From positions 3,328,001-3,392,000 of the forward strand of contig OY970223.1 in NCBI GenBank assembly GCA_963714015.1: 64,000 nucleotides of DNA, in the 5' to 3' direction. Shown in pieces: positions 1,543 to 13,814 of the stretch. Below the pieces are notes generated by a model. It was not told the origin of the DNA. It worked only from the letters and a program-made list of their open reading frames with translations, and ran no database searches. A program made the translations under genes and the position numbers. Origin of the DNA: Vulcanimicrobiota bacterium (GTDB lineage: Bacteria > Vulcanimicrobiota > Vulcanimicrobiia > Vulcanimicrobiales > Vulcanimicrobiaceae). Numbering within the stretch: the first letter of the stretch is position 1; each line of letters opens with the position of its first letter.

Positions 1543-3362
1543 CTACTCGGTCGCGGCCGGCGCGCTCAAGATGACGATCGCGCTGCGCGAGGCGTCGCTC
1601 CAGACGGCCTGTCCGACCAGCGGATCGGTCAGGTGCGAAAATGCCGCTTGTACCTCCTCGCGGGTGCACGCTTGAACGGAACCGGCCGCGCGCAATGCCG
1701 CATCGACCAGCAGCATCGCCGCGTCAAGGGTTAGCAGCGGCGCATTGGCCGGACCGCCTTGCTGCGTCGCGGTGACCTGCGCCTTCCAGCCTTCTTGCCG
1801 AACCAGGTGCGCGACGACCGCGATCCGTTTGCGCACGCCGTGCGTGCGTTCCCAGAGCAGATCGCTCAGCAGGTCGCAGGCAAAGCCCGGCTTGAGCAGT
1901 TGCCGGATTTCGAGCGGCGTCGCGCCCAGCGAGAGCAGCGTGCGCAAATCGGACACCGTGAGCGCCGTGACGCCGTGCGTGTGCAGTTCGGTAACGAGCT
2001 CTTCTTCCTCCGGAAACTCCGGGCCGATGATCGTGTTGTACTGCGCCTTGTACGCGGCAGCGTATTTGGAGGCCTCGACGCAATCGGGCTGCGTCACGAC
2101 GCCTTTGGCCGTTTTACATTCCAGCATGACGCGGTAGCCCAGCACGCCGACTGCGCGTCGGCGTAGCCGTCCGGTGCGAGGTACCCGCCGACGTGCGTTG
2201 CGCCAAAGCCCAAATGCGCAAACGCATCGCAGACCGCGATTTCGAACGCGGCCGGATCGGCGCCGGTCGAAGTAGCCTCTAGACGATCGATGAGCGCTTG
2301 CGTGGTTGCGCCGATCGCCGGCCGCACTTCAGGTTCGAGGTCCGGCCAGTCGTCGGGCGGCTGATTAATTCGGAACGTTCGATCCTGATTCTGCACGATC
2401 AGCGGTTTGCGACCGTGACCGATGGCGCGCGCGATGTACTCGATGAGCGCCGTATACATGTACTTTTTCACCATGTTCGGCTGCACGAGGCCGCGCTTGA
2501 GCGCTTCTTCAAGAATCTGCTGGGCGCTGCGCGCTTTGCCGTCTTCCAGGATGTCGAAGGCGGCCGTGATGGCGCTGCCGCGCGGCTGCGCCAGCATCAG
2601 GGTCGGCGCAGCGTTGATCTGCGCGAACTTTTGCGGCGGAATGGCCGCCACGACGTCACCGAAGACGTCACCGTGGGTCTTCCAGCGCTGCACGAACGCA
2701 TCGGCTTTGAGAGCGCCGTTCAGCGCGTCGAGTTCGTCCCAGCGGAACGGCGTTGCGACGGGGAATCCGTCAGCGCCGCGCAGGCTGTAAGGAAGAACGC
2801 TGAAATGCCAAGGCGCGTTGCTCGAGACGTGAAGATGGACGCGCTTGACGTCGTGCGTGTTGTACTCGGTCGTGAAGAGGTCGGGTCGGCGCGCCACCGC
2901 GTCGTTACAGAACGCGTGCAGCCAGGTGCGAACGTCCTGCGCCGCCGGCGCGTCGGCGAACGGAATCCAAAGTGCGATGCCGTCTTTGCCGTCGAAGAGC
3001 GGCGCCGCTTGCAGTTCGTGCTCAGCGAGCATATCACGCAAGGTTGCGGCCGCGAGGTTCCGACGGGCGGCGTCAGGCGAGCGCTCCAGCAGGATGCGCG
3101 CGAAGCGCAAGCGATCGACCTCATTCGGCACCGGCGCCCAGCCGTGAAACTCGACCGCGAACATGCGATGGCACAGCCAGAGCAGCTTGTTGGTGGACAT
3201 CGGCACATGCGTGCGATGCCAGTGCGGTGCCTGATCAAAACCAGCCGGAAAATTCGCGAAACAAATCGGCTCGTCCGCAAAGTGCTTTGCCATGGTTTCC
3301 GCGACGAGATAGTAATGGGAAAGAACGCGCGTTTCTAACGCGTCATTTAAGAGCAGCGCCAT
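1543..3362 (-). CDS. Fusion: degenerate LigD-type primase-polymerase + winged-helix (HARE-HTH-like) + Mrr-like PD-(D/E)xK nuclease; frameshift near 2150
   Basis: ORF 2094..3362 has LigD-POL motifs (VEFHGW, PYSLRG...VATPFRWDEL), then SAITAAFDILEDGKARSAQQILEEALKRGL, then FEIAVCDAFAHLGF...PDG. It continues in ORF 1543..2145 with LECKT. Confidence 0.7.
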
Positions 3363-3383: not shown

Positions 3384-3444
3384 GGGTCCGTCGAGGGCCT
3401 TTAAGGGAGTGTCAGGGTCCCTCGAGGGCCTTTAAGTGAGTGCA
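3384..3444. repeat. Tandem direct repeat, 2 x ~31 bp (GGGTCCsTCGAGGGCCTTTAAGkGAGTG)
   Basis: Units read directly at 3384-3414 and 3415-3444. Confidence 0.85.
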
Positions 3445-3874
3445 AAGCCCTCGTTAAGACGAAGCGGGCCCCGAGGAGAATCTATCCGTACCTCTTAGCA
3501 GGCGCTATCGCGCATAGGCAACCCCACTTTATCGCGGTTTTACGCCGGCTTCGCTTCTGATTGATGCTCGTAACCGGGCCCGCAGGGGTTGCGCTTTGCT
3601 GCATTTTGGAGCCCCCGATTGCGCGCTTTTGCGTCATCGGCGTCCGCAATAGACGGAACCAACAGTCGATGGTAACGCGGGCCTTAACGCAAATGCCCCT
3701 TGTCCCGATGAGGGCTTCCAACTTGGAATTTCAGGAAATCGTCACCGTTCTTGTCCTTGTGACGACGGGATAGGAGTTAAGGCCTTTTAAAACGAGGCCC
3801 CCCTCCTGGGCGCCTCGCGGCGTCGCGGCTAAGTCAATTCGATGGACTTAAGGCCTTCGAAAACGAGCTTCCGC

Positions 3875-4828
3875 CTAAGTCGGGTCAGAGACCGTTGCTA
3901 ATTTTGGACCGATATAGCCGATCAATATTTTGCCGTTAACCCGCTCGTTCCATATGTAATATCGCCAGGCCTGAGGTGTGATTCGGCCGTGAAGCGAAAA
4001 CGTACGTTGTACCCCATCAGGACAACTAAATGTGCGCTCTGCCGCGTAGCGCTGCATAGTTTGATCGCTTTCGCCAGATACATTCTCTCCCAACGTCAAT
4101 TTTGTTAACTGATTGCTAACCAACGTCGGCGCCACATCACTTAGCGCTGTAAGGTGCTTTATCATTTGAAAGAGAATAGGGTCGTTTTTGCTGAGCGCAT
4201 TCAAATTGTCCTTTGCAGACTCGCAAAATGTTAAACCAGGAAAAAGGCCTGCGCGTTGCTCCCAAACATCGCCCCCACAAGTGATACCATGCCTAAGTAT
4301 CCTTGCCGGCTCATTACAGTGGCGTGCCGCATGCTCCACGTTGCTGGCATGCAAAACGCGCTCATCGCGTTCCAGAATCCGGTCACCGTCTAGTACAGTA
4401 CTGCACGAATGACGAGTTCGTGAGTATCCCATGGATGCTCCGCACTCATGCTGACAGCAACTCCTTCGAATAAGAAGGCGAAACCAAGGCCCTTGCATGG
4501 GTTATCCGCAATGGAGAACTCACGAATTAACGTCTGCTCCTTCAGCGCGACCTCCTCATCGGCTATATACGGTGCCGCAGTAGCGACCGTAAGAAATGCG
4601 CGTCTAGTATCCACTTCAACGCCCCTATCGTTGACCCACTTAAGTATCGGATAGTCTGGCGCGATCTCCAACGTGGCTATCGTGTCTTGGGTACGCAAAC
4701 GGTTGTTGAAGCCATTTTTTATTAACCGCAATAATGTCAATGTAAATCGGCCCATCATAGCGCAAGCTGAACGTCGGTCTCGATAGGTCGCAATACCGTC
4801 ACCCGTTTAAGAAAATATCTAAGGGCAC
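3875..4828 (-). pseudogene. Third gene of Menshen-like locus (NsnC-like; C-terminus resembles RelE/ParE-type nuclease fold), frameshifted
   Basis: Fragments 4390..4758 and 3875..4498 lie directly downstream of the ATPase; C-terminal HGRI...WRYYI...ILIGYIGPKL. Confidence 0.5.
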
Positions 4829-4835
4829 GCGTACC

Positions 4836-5935
4836 CTACACTAACAGCTCTGTCAGGTTCTTTTCCCACTCGTCGAAGAATCCGTCCGGCCACTCGTTTA
4901 TGCGTCCGTTTTTATCCAACTTTGGAGAAACGATCGTCGATCCGGATGTGGGATCGCGCTGAAAATAGTGCAGTGCTATGTCCTCGGGTTGCAGCATTTC
5001 GCGGTGAACGGCCAGTCTCACACCGTTAAGTAAGTGGTCGCTATGCGTTTCTACTATAACCTGCACGCCGCCGAATGCTACTGGGGCGAGCAGCTCCCCC
5101 ATGATGGTTTGTCCTCGTGGGTGCAAGTGGGCCTCGGGGTTTTCAACTATAAACAGCGAGCCCGATATAGCGGCAAGGCTCGCGACTATCACGGGCAGCA
5201 CATACGTAAGTCCGAATCCAACGTTAGTGGCCCGGTAAGGGTTAGATAGGCCCGACGCTGATTCGAAGTGATACGCAAGCCCCACAAGGTCCATTGTGGC
5301 TTGTCGCGCCGTTGTAATACGCGTGCCGGGACAAAAGCTCGCCAAGCCATGCCTCGACTTGATCTTGTAAGCGCGGCGATGGCGCAGACTTTATGCAGTG
5401 TCGACTCGTTCCGTACCGGCTCATCCTTGAAAACATCAAGATAATGGATAGCGAACTCACCGCGTACCCCAACTCTTCGTTGTTGTCGAACGGCATAGTC
5501 AGCCATGACAGAATAAGGGCGCGGCCCCAAACGCTCCGCAGTCAAATAGGTAAACATATCATCAAACAAATTCGACGAATAGCCGTAGGAATTGGGGTCT
5601 CGAGCCAAAGGGCTTAAGACTTCCGCCTCGCGATCGTAATTAAAGGACCACGTAGCACCCCCCCCGCTAAATTGTAAATCGAAGGATATTATGTCATCGG
5701 TAGCGTTCTCGTACAAGGCATCCTTTGCGGAGCCAATTTCAGTCAGTTCTCCGTTTAACGCAAGGCCTATATCTGGCAGGTAACCAACAGAGCGCGACTG
5801 ACGCAGAAGTAGGAGGCTTTGCACAAGCGAAGACTTCCCCATCCCGTTAAGGCCTGAGAGAATCGTCAGTTTACTGAACGGGACTCGACAACGTTCAAAG
5901 CACTTAAAGTTGTGTATAGAAATACTATCCAGCAT
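4836..5935 (-). pseudogene. AAA/ABC-type ATPase with DUF3696 C-terminus (NsnB-like), frameshifted
   Basis: MLDSISIHNFKCF...GLNGMGKSS (Walker A), NVGFGLTYVLP, IVENPEAHLHP, ETHSDH, WPDGFFDEW. Split over ORFs 5189..6025, 5242..5496 and 4836..5345. Confidence 0.8.
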
Positions 5936-7097
5936 CGAGCACCTTTCTAACTGCCTTCTCAACCTTCTCAAATCTGAAACGAATTCGGTCTGGATTACCG
6001 GTTGCGACTGAGATCGTTTCCTCAAATCGAGTGTTTCGTAGTAGTTCCTCGTATGCGCGCCGGCAATCGTTCTTCCGATTACGTAACAATTGCTGCCGTT
6101 CGATAGGCACTTTTGCTAGATTTACGGACCACGTTTCGAACAGCGCCTTATTAATGGGAGGGCGTGGCAGGCTTCTCTCGCTTGATTTTACGAAATGCAT
6201 TCGCCCCGAAAAGATCGTGTGCGAGAGACATTGTTGATACGAATGACCGCCGAATTTCTTCAATCTCGCTTTGAGGCAAGGTATTTAATTCGCTCATTGC
6301 AGTGCTTAGGAAACTATCGAAGTCGCGCGCTTTGTACGATTTGTATGACATTCGAAAGAACGCGACAAATCGCAAAACGCATTCCCTATCACCCATGCGA
6401 TCATCGCGAATACCGAAGTCCGTTGCGATCCCGAATTCTGGCGCTTTTGCCAATTCGCTAAGTATGTCGCTTGCCTGCCCTTGGTTAAGCGCGTGGCGAA
6501 TCTCTTGAGCGGACAACGGCAAGCCACCCGTATTAATGCGTTTGAACACGGTGTATTTAACAGGTGGAGGCGTACCCTGCTGAATTCGATAAGCTGTAGT
6601 TGTGTTTCGTTAATTCGTCTCTGGATATTCCTTGTGAGATCGTCGTAGCGCTTTCCATCTAAGTTCGTTAGAAACTCCATGTCTTTCAGTCGTAACGACC
6701 GGTCAATTACAAAGCGCTTCAGAGTAATCAGTCGCTGCAGCCCGTCTACGACAAGCCACTTATCGTCATCTGTCGCGTCAAAATAGAATGCTGGAAGCGG
6801 TATTCTAACCAATATTGACTCGATGAGGCGGCTTTGCGTTGTGTCATTCCAGATGCCACCCTTACGCTGAAAGCCAGGGTTGAGATCGATTTCGTTAAGG
6901 GCAATCCGTTGCAACACCAAATCGATCGTCGGCTGCGTTGTTTCCATCCGAACAAGGTTCGGGTCAAACGGCTCAGTTATCGGTGTATCCGCGGAGGTGT
7001 CGTCTTCCTCTATACCGGGCTCAATCTCGTTGATTGACGCTGTACGCCCGGTTAGATCAAACAGTTTGTCCTGCTTCACTCCCATTTGCTTCGCCAT
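5925..7097 (-). pseudogene. DUF262 (ParB/GmrS-like) protein (NsnA-like), frameshifted twice
   Basis: PGFQR...IW...QSRLIESIL..IPLP.FY, VVDGLQRL, FKRINTGG.PLSAQEIR. Split over ORFs 6306..7475, 6151..6549 and 5925..6263. Confidence 0.8.
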
Positions 7098-8852
7098 TTT
7101 CGACAATATCTTGAAGTTTCCGCTGGTTGATTGGGTGCGGACGTCGCCCCGCGCGAATCGCCTGGAGCGCTGCGCGCGACACGCTACTGCGCTCTTGTAG
7201 TGTTTGTAGCGGCATAGCCTTGAGCTTTGGCAGAATCTTCGTGACCCATGCATCGCGCAGATTGTCCGGGTACTCCGTGTAAATGCTGCTCGCGTCCGAG
7301 GTGCTTTGCTGCTCGACCTCTTCCAGGTGATTCGACTCCTTGCCAATGTACCGAACGCAATCAATTGCGACGTGGCGCCGTGCCAGAAGCCCAGTCGTCC
7401 TTTGAGTTGAGGGCTCGCCGTCTGGAGTCGCGCACTTGGATTCCGGATGATATTCGTACGACGTAAGAACGTCATTGTACGTCTTTAGGCCGGCAGCCTT
7501 ACTGTCGCGGGTCGGCAACGTTGATACGCGATAGCGCCGCGCAGAGTACTCATCAATCCACTGTAGTCGTAGCCACTTCATCGGATTCGACTCGTACGGA
7601 GCAATGAGGTGAAAGCGCTCGGGATCGACGCCTAGCGGATGCCCCAATTGCTGAACATGTGCGCTGAGGAGGAAATTGAACGGCTTGATTTGCTTCGCAT
7701 AGTCCTTGCACCGATTGAGCTTTTCAAATAGGCGCGCGACATGCGGGCTGCTCACGGTGATACGACTGACGGCTGGCACGTATGCAAACGTAGCAGGCGT
7801 TGCCTTGAGACCGAACGCCTTGCGAATGATGCGAAGCCATGCATCGGCAACCAATCGCGATCGTCGCCCTCCGGATCGGTAGGGTTGAGCAAATGTCCTA
7901 ATCCATGCTCGGACCAATGGTTCTTGCCATTATTGATACCGGCGCGCAAAAGACTGTGGAACGCCCTTTGCATCCCGAAGAAAGAGCACATAGCGCTTTG
8001 CCGATATCGCGTAACACCACAAGCTGTCGCTGTTTGCCGCTTTTCGGGTCGAAGTTATCGTCTTCGATCTCCAGAATGGAACCTCGCACGGCCTCGCGGT
8101 CGTACGGGTTGAGCCTCGCAAACAAGTCCACAATCTCTTGGACTTGCCCCCAGGAAAGCGCCCGGATTGCCTCCCGCCCGCCGCGCATGCGAAGGGGGCC
8201 GCCAGGACAGGCTACAGGGCCGCCGCCGCGCGTGGCCGCTATCGCCATGGAGTCGGTATCCTCCATTGCGTACGTGCCGCCCCGATCGGTGACAAGGCGC
8301 TCCAGGAGGGACAGGAACAGCCTTCCACCGCTCGTGACCAGCGATGCGAGAGGCGGAAAGCAATACTCGCCAGGCGCTTCGGGATGCGAGACCGCGCACG
8401 CATACGGGCTATCATCGATGCCGTAGCATTGCAGGCGCACTTTCTTATCGGATTCCTGGCGGTCCATTTGCGCAAAAATGCCATAGGCTGTCGCGCTACC
8501 GAACGTCTTGAGGGCTTTATCTAAGCGCTCCCGCTCGGCCGGCTCAATGTCCTTGCGCGACGCGAGACGCTTGCGTTCCTCGATCACCTTTCGGAAAAAA
8601 TCGTCCCTGCGGGGGTTGATCGGGACCCGCCCTCGGAATGCGATCGGCGTCAGTAAATCGACCTCGCCGATCGGTTTGATTCGAAACGCCTCCACGATCC
8701 GAGGGATCTTACCGGTCAGCAAAACCGAGGCGACGAGATCCGGCCACGCATACCAGAGTGCGTCTTCCTGGCGCGAGGCATACAGATAGTTCACACCGAT
8801 TTGCCACGCATTGCTCCCGTACTTTGCTCGCACGGGAAGAACGTCGCCATCC
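7057..8852 (-). pseudogene. Divergent family B DNA polymerase (self-synthesizing element/casposon-like), N-terminus lost, internal frameshifts, C-terminal HTH-like tail
   Basis: Motif B-like KALKTFGSATAYG, PLASLVTSGGR and motif C YAMEDTDS in the C-terminal part of ORF 7898..9271. Continues through 7930..8133, 7752..7991 and 7057..7917. Confidence 0.7.
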
Positions 8853-9606
8853 GATCGCAGCGGATTGCCGTTGGAGCACCGCGCTTGACGACGATGCGAT
8901 CCAGTATCCGTACGACGTCCGCAGGCTTTGAATCCAGGCGCGACCTCGATGGCGAGGCATTCGCGCGTGAAGACATCGACGATGTTGAGCAAGCGAAACT
9001 TTCGTCGTTGCTCGCCCTTGAGCGTGTCGTGCATAAAATCCATGCTCCATACTTGATTGGGTCCCGCTGGCGAAAGACGAATGCGCTGCGCCGCCGACCG
9101 CCGCCGGCGTTTCGGTCCTTTGGCCCGTAAATTCAGGCCTTCCAACGTGTAGAGGCGTGCGACGCGCTTGGCGTTGACCTTCCAACCTTCGCGTTGCAAG
9201 AGCACATGGATGCGCCGATAGCCGTACCGCACGCGCGCGGCGGCAATCGCTATTATTCGTCCGCGCAGCACGGTTCAACGCATTGCGCTTGGGTTTGTAC
9301 TGCGGTGATGCGCGATGAATCGTAGCGCCGCGCTTACGCGCCGCTGGCTCACGCCAAACTGTTCTTGCACTTCGCCGGCGAGCTCGCGCTGCTTGGCCGG
9401 CCTCAGAGTTTTTTTTAGAGCACGTCCTGCAACATCGCCTTGTCGAGCGAGAGATCGGCGACCAGGCGTTTGAGCCGCGTATTTTCATCGCGCAGTTCGT
9501 TCATCTCGCGAATCTCGCTCGTGCCGAACTGACCGTATTTTTTCTTCCAAAAGTGAATCGTGTTCTCGTGCACGCCAGCTTGGCGCGCGAGTGCTGCGCT
9601 ATCGGA
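8853..9606 (-). mobile_element. IS3-family internal fragment (orfA 3' part + orfB 5' part); near-identical inverted copy of the element at 14812-15586
   Basis: RYGYRRI, WSMDF, IVDVFTRECL motifs; DNA matches about 14952-15586 in reverse complement. Confidence 0.9.
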
Positions 9607-9627: not shown

Positions 9628-10911
9628 TTATAAGACGCTTACCTTTATCGACACGCTGTTGGAGACGTTGTCGCTTATTTTTATCGTGCAATTTCCCGAG
9701 CCCGTAGCCGTTACGGTGAACGTTGAAGCCGAACCGCCTTGAGCGACCGTTGCAACGGCGGTATTCGACGACTTTGCGGTCCATGCGCTTACCGTGCTTT
9801 CACTAACCGTGAGCGTTCCGGTTTGTCCTGCAGCAGTAAACGATAGTTTGAGAGGCGACACAGTCATTGGATTCGTCACGAGTACATCCAGGGCGTTGCC
9901 GCCGAGCGTATCGATCCACACATTTCCGTCAGGCCCCGCGGAAAGGGCATCCACGTTTACCAACTCCGGAAGCGGAGGCGTAAAGATCGTCACGGTTTGG
10001 CTCGCGGTGTTTACCCTGAAGATGTTGTCGTCGGTGCGGCTCGCACACCATGGTTCACCATCGGGGCCACGCGCGCAGAATTGTTCCGTTTCATTTCCCT
10101 CGAACGAACCGCCGATCGGATAAACGGAAATCACTCCGGCCGGAGTGATGCGGCCCATCTGGGGTGCTGAGGCTAAGCATGCAAACCAGACGTTATTGTC
10201 TTTGGCTAAGACAACGGCGGCCGGGGTGCACGACACCGGAATCTGAAACATGCTGATTGTGCCGGTGGACGGAACGATGCGTCCGATCGCGTTTTGCGAC
10301 GATTCGGCGAACCACACGTTGCCGTCGGATCCGGCCGTGACGCCGCCATATTGATTCGTCCCCGGCTGCGTGGGATACGCATATTCCGTAATCACGCCTG
10401 CCGGCGTAACCTTACCGATGTGGTTGACTTCGGCGAACCAAACATTTCCGTCCGGCCCCGCGCCTATTCCGTCGAGCGACGTGTTGTCACCGCTTGGTAT
10501 CGCGATCGACTTCGACTTGCCTGCGGTCGTCGCAACGGCGATGCTTGTCGTCTCGTCGCTTATATAGAATTTCTTGTCGGCGCCGAGAGCCAACGAAACC
10601 GGACTGCCGCCAAGCGAGCCCGAGAGAGAGAATTCTTTGACGATTCCGGCCATCGAAACGCGCGCCAGCGCGCCCGCACCTTCGTCAAGGAACCACATAT
10701 TGCCGTCGGGACCCGCCACGATTGCCGCACCCTGTCCGCCGGCGCCCTTCAACGCAAACCGTACGTATTGCGCGCCTTTTCCTTTTTGTGCCACGTCGGG
10801 CCGTAACGAAGAAAGCGAGGGCAGTGACGAAGCGGTCCCGCTAGTGTGAGCGCCGCAAGCGGCGCATATACAAGCCAACAGCGCAAGGGACGCGAGGCGA
10901 TAGTTGGTCAT
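9628..10911 (-). CDS. Vgb (virginiamycin B lyase)-like beta-propeller lipoprotein with C-terminal Ig-like domain
   Basis: Repeated GPDGN(M/V)WF motifs; lipobox-like CAAC; C-terminal SSNTAVATV. Confidence 0.75.
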   Translation of the reverse strand: MTNYRLASLALLACICAACGAHTSGTASSLPSLSSLRPDVAQKGKGAQYVRFALKGAGGQGAAIVAGPDGNMWFLDEGAGALARVSMAGIVKEFSLSGSLGGSPVSLALGADKKFYISDETTSIAVATTAGKSKSIAIPSGDNTSLDGIGAGPDGNVWFAEVNHIGKVTPAGVITEYAYPTQPGTNQYGGVTAGSDGNVWFAESSQNAIGRIVPSTGTISMFQIPVSCTPAAVVLAKDNNVWFACLASAPQMGRITPAGVISVYPIGGSFEGNETEQFCARGPDGEPWCASRTDDNIFRVNTASQTVTIFTPPLPELVNVDALSAGPDGNVWIDTLGGNALDVLVTNPMTVSPLKLSFTAAGQTGTLTVSESTVSAWTAKSSNTAVATVAQGGSASTFTVTATGSGNCTIKISDNVSNSVSIKVSVL

Positions 10912-11222
10912 AAAATGACCTCCGCAGCGACTAGAGAGTCGAAGCGTTCGTTGAGCCGCCATAAGCGCCTGTGTTTGGAATGGTTCAAAAGGCTCACTCG
11001 CGCGTGGGCTCTTCGCGCGAAAGGGCCTGCGCCGCCCGCCTAGCGCGCTTTTCATCGGGGGTGAGGTCCAGTGCGCGGCGTCGGTTACTTTCGGCTATCT
11101 TAGCGCCGCGTATCTTTGCCGCCTCTCCCGCATGGCCAGGGCTAAAACCGCGGTTAAGCCTTGTTTGTGCTATTGAAATCGATAACCAGAATGGATAATG
11201 CTGGGCGGAAGCGGCTATCCGG

Positions 11223-12001: not shown

Positions 12002-13814
<1,813 letters not shown>

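Follow-up and report, generated by a model that had tools for sequence, protein, structure and literature searches.

LigD polymerases (structures 2fao, 2iru and 5dmu), Mrr-type and winged-helix-fusion type IV enzymes (PMC11037411) and FokI are the closest described relatives of the protein considered here, and Hachiman and Lamassu resemble it in concept. The protein is encoded on the minus strand at positions 1543..3362 of a 64,000-nucleotide stretch of contig OY970223.1 (hereafter the window) from a Vulcanimicrobiota (Eremiobacterota) bacterium. If read through a one-base break it is ~606 amino acids (aa) long and comprises a catalytically dead domain like the polymerase of LigD (LigD-POL), a first winged helix, a PD-(D/E)xK nuclease, and a helical linker with a second winged helix. 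We propose, with roughly even confidence, that the product is an Mrr/FokI-like DNA endonuclease, of a restriction or defence type and working on its own, in which an exapted dead polymerase and winged helices would serve DNA recognition or regulation.

The new family shares with LigD polymerases the same fold over the whole domain, a match to PF21686 above cut-off and the scaffold motifs EFHxW, PYSxR and P..W.EL. In contrast to these enzymes, its catalytic and nucleotide-binding residues are all replaced throughout, the first ~25-35 residues and a ~23-residue insert are missing, and the domain is fused to a nuclease, unlinked to Ku or ligase and placed in its own long-branch clade. The remaining parts recall Mrr-type and other type IV enzymes, which likewise carry a winged helix followed by an Mrr_cat-like PD-(D/E)xK core. 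As with those enzymes the gene is a solitary one, the 144 scanned neighbours including no methyltransferase, and some members match Mrr_cat; unlike them, the new family adds an N-terminal dead polymerase and a C-terminal winged helix and has no Mrr_N or HARE-HTH profile match. In structure, the winged helix and cleavage domain together match FokI best, but FokI has a cognate methyltransferase and three recognition subdomains, whereas no methyltransferase accompanies the genes described here. In concept only, and with sensing a supposition in the present case, the arrangement is similar to Hachiman and Lamassu, where a PD-(D/E)xK-type effector is joined to a DNA-repair-derived module. The proteins are unrelated, however, and the system here has no ATPase or helicase.

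In the openly searchable literature we came across no account of a nuclease fused to a dead LigD-POL. The accessible text of PMC11037411 yielded no mention of 'primase' or 'LigD', and such a fusion is not covered in the available portion of Kazlauskas et al. 2018 (PMC5862659). The joining of a dead repair polymerase to a nuclease is a previously undescribed combination that has no PADLOC model. It provides a clear and well-populated case of an inactivated repair polymerase kept under selection as a non-catalytic nuclease module, and it illustrates the exaptation of parts from non-homologous end joining (NHEJ). It may represent a nuclease of the restriction type whose exapted sensor or regulatory domain is without precedent, and it could give a starting point for exploring the defence systems of uncultured Eremiobacterota, which are largely unknown.

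The dead polymerase domain and the nuclease

Conservation was assessed in a set of 264 homologues aligned to the family profile. The set combined the best 119 from a word-indexed search, not counting the entry of the window itself, with the top representatives from an exhaustive representative search, which returned 6310 proteins at E<=0.001 and 224 cluster representatives at E<=1e-30. The polymerase-like domain is covered by 191 of these homologues and the nuclease by 186, and 136 of the 264 cover all four parts of the protein.

The N-terminal domain (2613..3362, minus strand, aa ~1-250) has the fold of an archaeo-eukaryotic primase (AEP) of the LigD-POL type, as judged by a Pfam match and fold comparison. 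The Pfam profile LigD_Prim-Pol (PF21686) aligns to aa 56-234 with 92.8 bits against a cut-off of 27.4. A structure model was built for the closest intact orthologue, P0002 (86% identical), from an alignment of 101 full-length homologues, and reached a predicted local distance difference test score (pLDDT) of 92.9 and a predicted template modelling score (pTM) of 0.87. In fold comparison with VIA, residues 3-252 of this model matched 2fao_A with Z 27.5 and a root-mean-square deviation (rmsd) of 2.4 Å over 247 residues, and the LigD polymerases of P. aeruginosa, M. tuberculosis and Methanocella gave Z 26-27.5 with rmsd 2.3-2.9 Å over 235-247 residues.

The initial annotation, made from the DNA letters, had described a LigD-POL scaffold with replaced catalytic positions, and every motif that it quoted is present in the window (EFHGW, PYSLR, VATPFRWDEL, RILLERS, DGKDGIA and HLHVSSN). 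The catalytic positions were read from query and family-profile alignments to 5dmu, 2iru and 2fao, and these alignments confirm the replacements. In the window the DxD of motif I has become E..S, the lysine and histidine of motif II (SGxKGxH) have become D and A respectively, and the aspartate of motif III has become histidine. The same holds across the 191 homologues covering the domain. DxD is found in none and [DE]x[DE] in 19; the motif II histidine is kept in none, with alanine there in 160; and the motif III position is histidine in 157 and acidic in one. All three acidic catalytic residues do not occur together in any homologue. Together these data show that the AEP domain is a true LigD-POL fold that is catalytically dead family-wide.

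The domain stays under purifying selection even though all catalytic residues are lost. The ratio of nonsynonymous to synonymous substitution rates (dN/dS) for the dead domain is 0.11-0.15 against two orthologues, W75, N182, Y192, P205 and W208 are invariant, and R195 is present in at least 90% of members. At the former active site a set of Glu/Asp/His/His is found in 97 of 191 members. The glutamate co-occurs with both histidines, being present in 117 of the 139 members having both as against 16 of the 52 without, a comparison that is confounded by relatedness.

In the P0002 model a disordered linker leads from the polymerase-like domain to winged helix 1 (2361..2573, minus strand, aa ~264-334), which is made of three helices and a beta-hairpin. 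It is followed by the PD-(D/E)xK nuclease core (1927..2309, minus strand, aa ~352-479), an alpha/beta fold whose catalytic codons D398, E415 and K417 lie at 2169-2171, 2119-2121 and 2113-2115 respectively on the minus strand. The intact-looking nuclease of the initial annotation held up well, since the E..D..ExK signature is kept in 180 of the 186 homologues that cover it and VIA comparison of this region gave a restriction-endonuclease fold (FokI, Z 15.9-16.2; HindIII, Z 14.3). The match to 2fok_B (Z 15.9, rmsd 2.5 Å over 154 residues, 21% identity) takes in the winged helix as well as the cleavage domain, winged helix 1 lying within the stretch aligned to FokI residues 193-579. Modelling and fold search by domain thus return a LigD-POL fold at the N-terminus (Z 27.5) and a FokI-like nuclease behind it. 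Among sequence profiles, Pfam Mrr_cat is above cut-off in some homologues (P0043, 32.9 bits; P0016, 27.3 bits) and found at E<=1 in 11 of 18 modules without the dead domain, which are described below; the match to FokI_cleav_dom is marginal (E 0.03-0.3). The nuclease is a conserved PD-(D/E)xK enzyme resembling FokI, HindIII and Mrr.

The middle segment had been called HARE-HTH-like. Its winged helix is seen in the model, and the more specific name has been dropped: Pfam HARE-HTH and Mrr_N gave no match at E<=1 in 16 proteins or in the 18 modules, so that a HARE-HTH or Mrr_N identity for winged helix 1 is unsupported by Pfam and only the label 'winged helix' holds.

The C-terminal domain (1546..1926, minus strand) is predicted to be a helical hairpin followed by a second winged helix, a generic fold call resting on VIA. 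When folded alone from the window's own sequence it gave a pLDDT of 89.5. A wide VIA search matched it to cullin WHB, YceH and ORC/Cdc6 winged-helix domains at Z 8-9.5, values near the tool's stated background for unmatched models. Foldseek returned nothing at E<=0.001 (best E 0.15, with top rows mostly winged-helix domains or proteins having such a domain) and the ESM Atlas gave unnamed clusters only, with a best score of 0.84.

The one-base break in the window copy

In the window the gene is divided between two open reading frames (ORFs) on the minus strand, one of 422 aa at 2094..3362 and one of 200 aa at 1543..2145, which overlap in different frames. In a three-frame translation, frame 0 reads ...APDGYADAQ and the second frame carries on as GVLGYRVMLECK; at the junction one frame stops at ...HVGGYLAPDGYADAQ and another resumes with GVLGYRVMLECKTAKG. 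Full-length homologues of 603-606 aa and 83-86% identity read an uninterrupted APDGYADAQLGVLGYRVMLECK across the same site. Alignment of the DNA places GCGCAG-CTC/CTA-GGCGTG of two orthologues against GCGCAG-TC-GGCGTG of the window, with exactly one base absent, so that two bases (2149..2150, minus strand) are left where the orthologues have a Leu codon. The frameshift suspected near 2150 is therefore borne out, and the ORFs at 2094-3362 and 1543-2145 are two pieces of one gene, which is a single ORF in the homologues and not a pair of separate genes.

The break falls inside the nuclease core, between D398 and E415, as might be expected if the window copy were a true pseudogene that is decaying, together with the island around it, at a locus without function. 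The three adjacent Menshen genes, described below, are all broken (4 breaks), an IS3-type gene nearby is truncated, and the genome has an intact paralogue elsewhere, all of which would fit such decay. The gene itself tells against it: apart from this single break the copy shows neither a stop codon nor any further lesion, and comparison with two orthologues gives a dN/dS of 0.10-0.13 for the whole gene and ~0.1 in every domain. The same kind of break is also found in genes that are not expected to decay. Of four long essential genes tested in the same genome, uvrA alone is whole, whereas rpoB (C1 2035484-2038733), rpoC (C1 2063474-2066972) and gyrA (C1 1029558-1031985) are each divided between abutting pieces in different frames, and the canonical LigD-POL beside Ku (C1 819539-820331) is frame-split as well. 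Since essential single-copy genes and the canonical LigD-POL carry the same breaks, indels appear to be common artefacts in this assembly, a single 3.56-Mb contig with a completeness of only 89.6%. We consider a real pseudogene unlikely.

Given the frameshifted rpoB, rpoC and gyrA, the intact orthologues and a dN/dS of ~0.1, the window copy was probably broken by an assembly error and not by decay, and the gene is therefore probably intact in the organism. More generally, frame breaks in this assembly should not be taken for pseudogenes without read support. No public RNA run holding the sequence is listed, and scans for promoters, terminators and tRNAs around the gene gave nothing above chance.

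Distribution, modular forms and relation to end joining

Related loci are nearly all from metagenome-assembled genomes (MAGs) of Eremiobacterota (Vulcanimicrobiota), many of them soil bacteria. The titled exceptions are one MAG each of Dormibacterota, Acidiferrales and Rhodospirillales, together with several records named 'bacterium' or 'uncultured bacterium'. We then sampled 200 other genomes of the phylum, counting as a strong match a best E < 1e-60. Strong matches were found in 55 of 113 genomes of the window's family, in all three of a second family and in five of 15 of a third (~63 of 131; 61 of 129 without G128 and G178, two positive genomes flagged as unpublished). None of the 69 genomes from the rest of the phylum gave a strong match, and only weak matches typical of true LigD polymerases were seen there. 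The family has a patchy distribution within a single class of Eremiobacterota, to which it is restricted. Copy number ranges from 1 to 6 matches per genome and the copies are divergent.

Besides the window copy, the window's own genome has an intact paralogue of 614 aa, which lies at ~2.087 Mb in a stretch where G+C is 54-59%. Ahead of this paralogue is a protein of 297 aa that bears DUF7669 at its C-terminus (L093 8961-9854; C1 ~2085.96-2086.85 kb), and the stretch otherwise holds mostly unmatched small ORFs plus a WYL-WCX regulator. This region is possibly another mobile or defence island.

Genomic neighbours were scanned as far as the second gene on either side. Of 73 loci in total, 54 had four neighbours, and the scan took in 37 of these, or 148 of 216 selected proteins. 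One locus, L025, proved to be a true LigD and was dropped, leaving 36 loci and 144 neighbour proteins. There is no conserved neighbour among the 73 loci, the largest neighbour cluster being found in 16 of 80 loci, in keeping with the single-gene unit that had been suggested for this protein. No DNA methyltransferase, Ku or ligase occurs among the 144 neighbours of the 36 loci, and no DNA methyltransferase in window positions 1-20800.

The ancestry of the dead domain raises the question of whether the protein is an NHEJ accessory, an end-processing nuclease whose dead domain docks on Ku or on broken ends and brings the nuclease to trim them. The domain descends from an NHEJ polymerase, as seen from PF21686 and the fold, and Ku is present in 125 of the 131 sampled genomes of the three families holding the gene. 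The window's own genome has a canonical ligase-POL-Ku locus (C1 818497-820991) and a POL-ligase pair (C1 3268136-3269575), and most neighbourhoods of the new family are not defence islands. Both canonical loci are outside the window, however. As had been noted, no Ku or ATP-dependent ligase lies within its 64 kb; the genome's only Ku is at C1:820500 and its ligases are at C1:818497, 3269033 and 3537513. The new gene was never beside Ku or ligase in the 36 loci. Only around half of the genomes with Ku give a strong match, often to several divergent copies, a pattern that does not resemble a core repair factor. A full-length copy is carried by four (G029, G033, G077 and G111, 95-98% complete) of the six genomes of the window's family in which Ku was not found. 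Since Ku is present in 125 of 131 genomes, NHEJ is core in these families, whereas the dead-polymerase-nuclease gene is patchy, and the family is independent of Ku. The modular forms and the tree described next, in which the nuclease module is found alone or fused to an M4 peptidase and the dead clade evolves faster than true polymerases on a very long branch, are likewise not what an NHEJ accessory would lead one to expect. We regard this role as improbable and favour a stand-alone endonuclease.

Eighteen of the retrieved proteins consist of the winged helix-nuclease-winged helix module without the dead domain. Sixteen of these stand alone (354-489 aa), and in the remaining two, P0155 (696 aa) and P0182 (703 aa), the module is fused to an N-terminal thermolysin-type M4 peptidase with an intact HExxH. 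Conversely, 28 of the 264 homologues are a dead domain alone, some of them perhaps contig fragments. By search coordinates, eight sampled genomes have a dead-domain gene and a module gene adjacent on opposite strands. The divergent pair was verified as ORFs in L087 and L089, with 25-42 bp between the genes. In L088, L090 and L092 ORF picking gave one partner only and the pairs rest on search coordinates, and L091 appears to be a frameshifted fused gene and not a true split.

Fusion together with conserved adjacency suggests that the two halves work together, and the split divergent forms argue for, not against, a functional link between them. The exchange of front ends, either a dead polymerase or an M4 peptidase, is a pattern of conflict systems.

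A tree of 40 rows, including three polymerases from outside the phylum and leaving out POL_own2, a frameshifted fragment, placed the dead domains in one clade (support 100) on a stem of 2.21 changes per column, outside the Eremiobacterota POL clade. Stand-alone and fused dead domains are interspersed within it, and their terminal branches are longer than those of true polymerases. An origin of the dead domain from the phylum's own LigD-POL gained no support from this tree, which has only three outside polymerases.

The divergent two-gene forms could also suggest a selfish or addictive nuclease, toxin-like or of the homing type, with the divergent dead-AEP partner acting as inhibitor or antitoxin. 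The patchy, multi-copy distribution and the frequency of toxin-antitoxin genes as neighbours would suit it. On the other hand most members are single fused polypeptides (the 136 of 264 covering all four parts), a form seldom taken by toxin-antitoxin pairs, there is no transposase or integrase that regularly adjoins the gene, and no homologue was found on plasmids or viral contigs. We judge this explanation very unlikely.

Proposed function and genomic context

Our preferred reading remains that of a stand-alone endonuclease. The effector would be a PD-(D/E)xK endonuclease of the Mrr/FokI type, flanked by two winged helices. Its target would be foreign or aberrant DNA, which it may cleave in the manner of a type IV restriction enzyme or, alternatively, as a defence nuclease that senses DNA structure, in both cases without a methyltransferase. 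The winged helices and the dead polymerase would supply DNA recognition, regulation of cleavage, or both. The ligand of the dead domain, the gating of the nuclease and the role in defence are suppositions drawn from domain make-up and context.

A bolder version, which we think possible but doubtful, is that an immune sensor has evolved from a repair enzyme. The dead NHEJ polymerase would read ends, gaps or some other nucleic-acid feature, or else a metal or small ligand, and then license the nuclease, so that the family would form a new class of single-protein or two-gene defence systems with swappable front ends. In 97 of 191 members the former active site of this domain is remodelled into the co-varying Glu/Asp/His/His cluster. 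If the dead domain does read ends or gaps, this would be a new type of sensor for bacterial immunity, and the protein, if so, would be a compact modular nuclease whose specificity module is open to study or exchange.

Several observations weigh against a defence endonuclease, whether or not it senses DNA through the dead domain. We found no direct computational support for restriction by the protein. PADLOC 2.0 has no model matching the window pieces (E<=1) or the paralogue (E<=0.01); P0002 gave only a 14-bit match to a CRISPR-associated PrimPol (E 0.006). Pfam Mrr_cat is not matched by the window ORFs, and its cut-off of 21 bits is not reached by the closest orthologue, P0002 (18.7 bits). Association with defence islands is modest, with defence or toxin-antitoxin neighbours at ~5-10 of 36 loci and no background comparison: a toxin-antitoxin, Cas9-like, transposase or Uma2 gene lies within two genes at 10 of the 36, and PADLOC matches lie near family members at six, of which one is probably spurious. 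Among the neighbours covered (148 of 216 selected proteins), most are hypothetical or belong to ordinary metabolism. Mobile elements gave no homologue either. Searches of viral contigs returned 192 pattern hits, none confirmed as a homologue, and 18 plasmid records matched, of which 13 are listed with an annotated feature that is ligD / DNA ligase D and five are unidentified. Viral and plasmid collections are probably poor in elements of this phylum. As regards sensing, the first ~25-35 residues and the ~23-residue insert of solved LigD-POLs are missing from the dead domain, and binding of ends or gaps therefore cannot be presumed kept. In the structures of M. tuberculosis LigD-POL the 5'-phosphate-binding lysines presumably lie within the N-terminal part that is missing or changed here. 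Finally, the integrity of the window copy finds no help in public reads, as the only run with part of the sequence (15% of sampled words) gave contigs covering 1949-2140 and 2185-2369, none of which bridges 2140-2185.

The window copy adjoins a block of lower GC content (48-55%) that contains Menshen genes, a truncated IS3-type gene and an IS21 element. The neighbouring Menshen-like locus had been recognised from the start, and PADLOC identifies a full set of consecutive NsnA, NsnB and NsnC genes at window 3875-7475 on the minus strand. NsnC (3875-4758) is in two frame pieces (E 3e-40 and 7e-20), NsnB (4836-6025) in two (E 4e-65 and 2e-41) and NsnA (5925-7475) in three (E 7e-56, 7e-45 and 2e-19). 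The four frame breaks of these genes may be assembly artefacts, given the error pattern in this assembly.

Between the new gene and this block, just upstream of the start codon, are two 28-nt direct repeats (3384..3442, no strand assigned) that are 93% identical with a spacing of 31 and could be an operator or an island boundary. A second repeat pair is found at window 3773-3867.

Further along, a 457-aa ORF on the minus strand (7898-9271) begins with an IS3-type HTH_21 and part of an rve domain (aa 5-110), after which the sequence is unrelated and matches no family. It adjoins a 286-aa ORF on the same strand (7057-7917) that has no match, and the two may represent a larger gene disrupted by an insertion sequence. 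In the IS21-type pair (12002-13814, minus strand) the IstB ATPase scores 293 bits and its partner is an IstA-like transposase that has an rve domain.

Beta-propeller proteins of the Vgb_lyase/NHL type recur near members of the family, at window 9628-11055 and at L093 12518-14578 and 16190-16684, L027 6777-7865 and L047 9738-10997. These neighbours probably belong to a paralogous family that is very abundant in these genomes.

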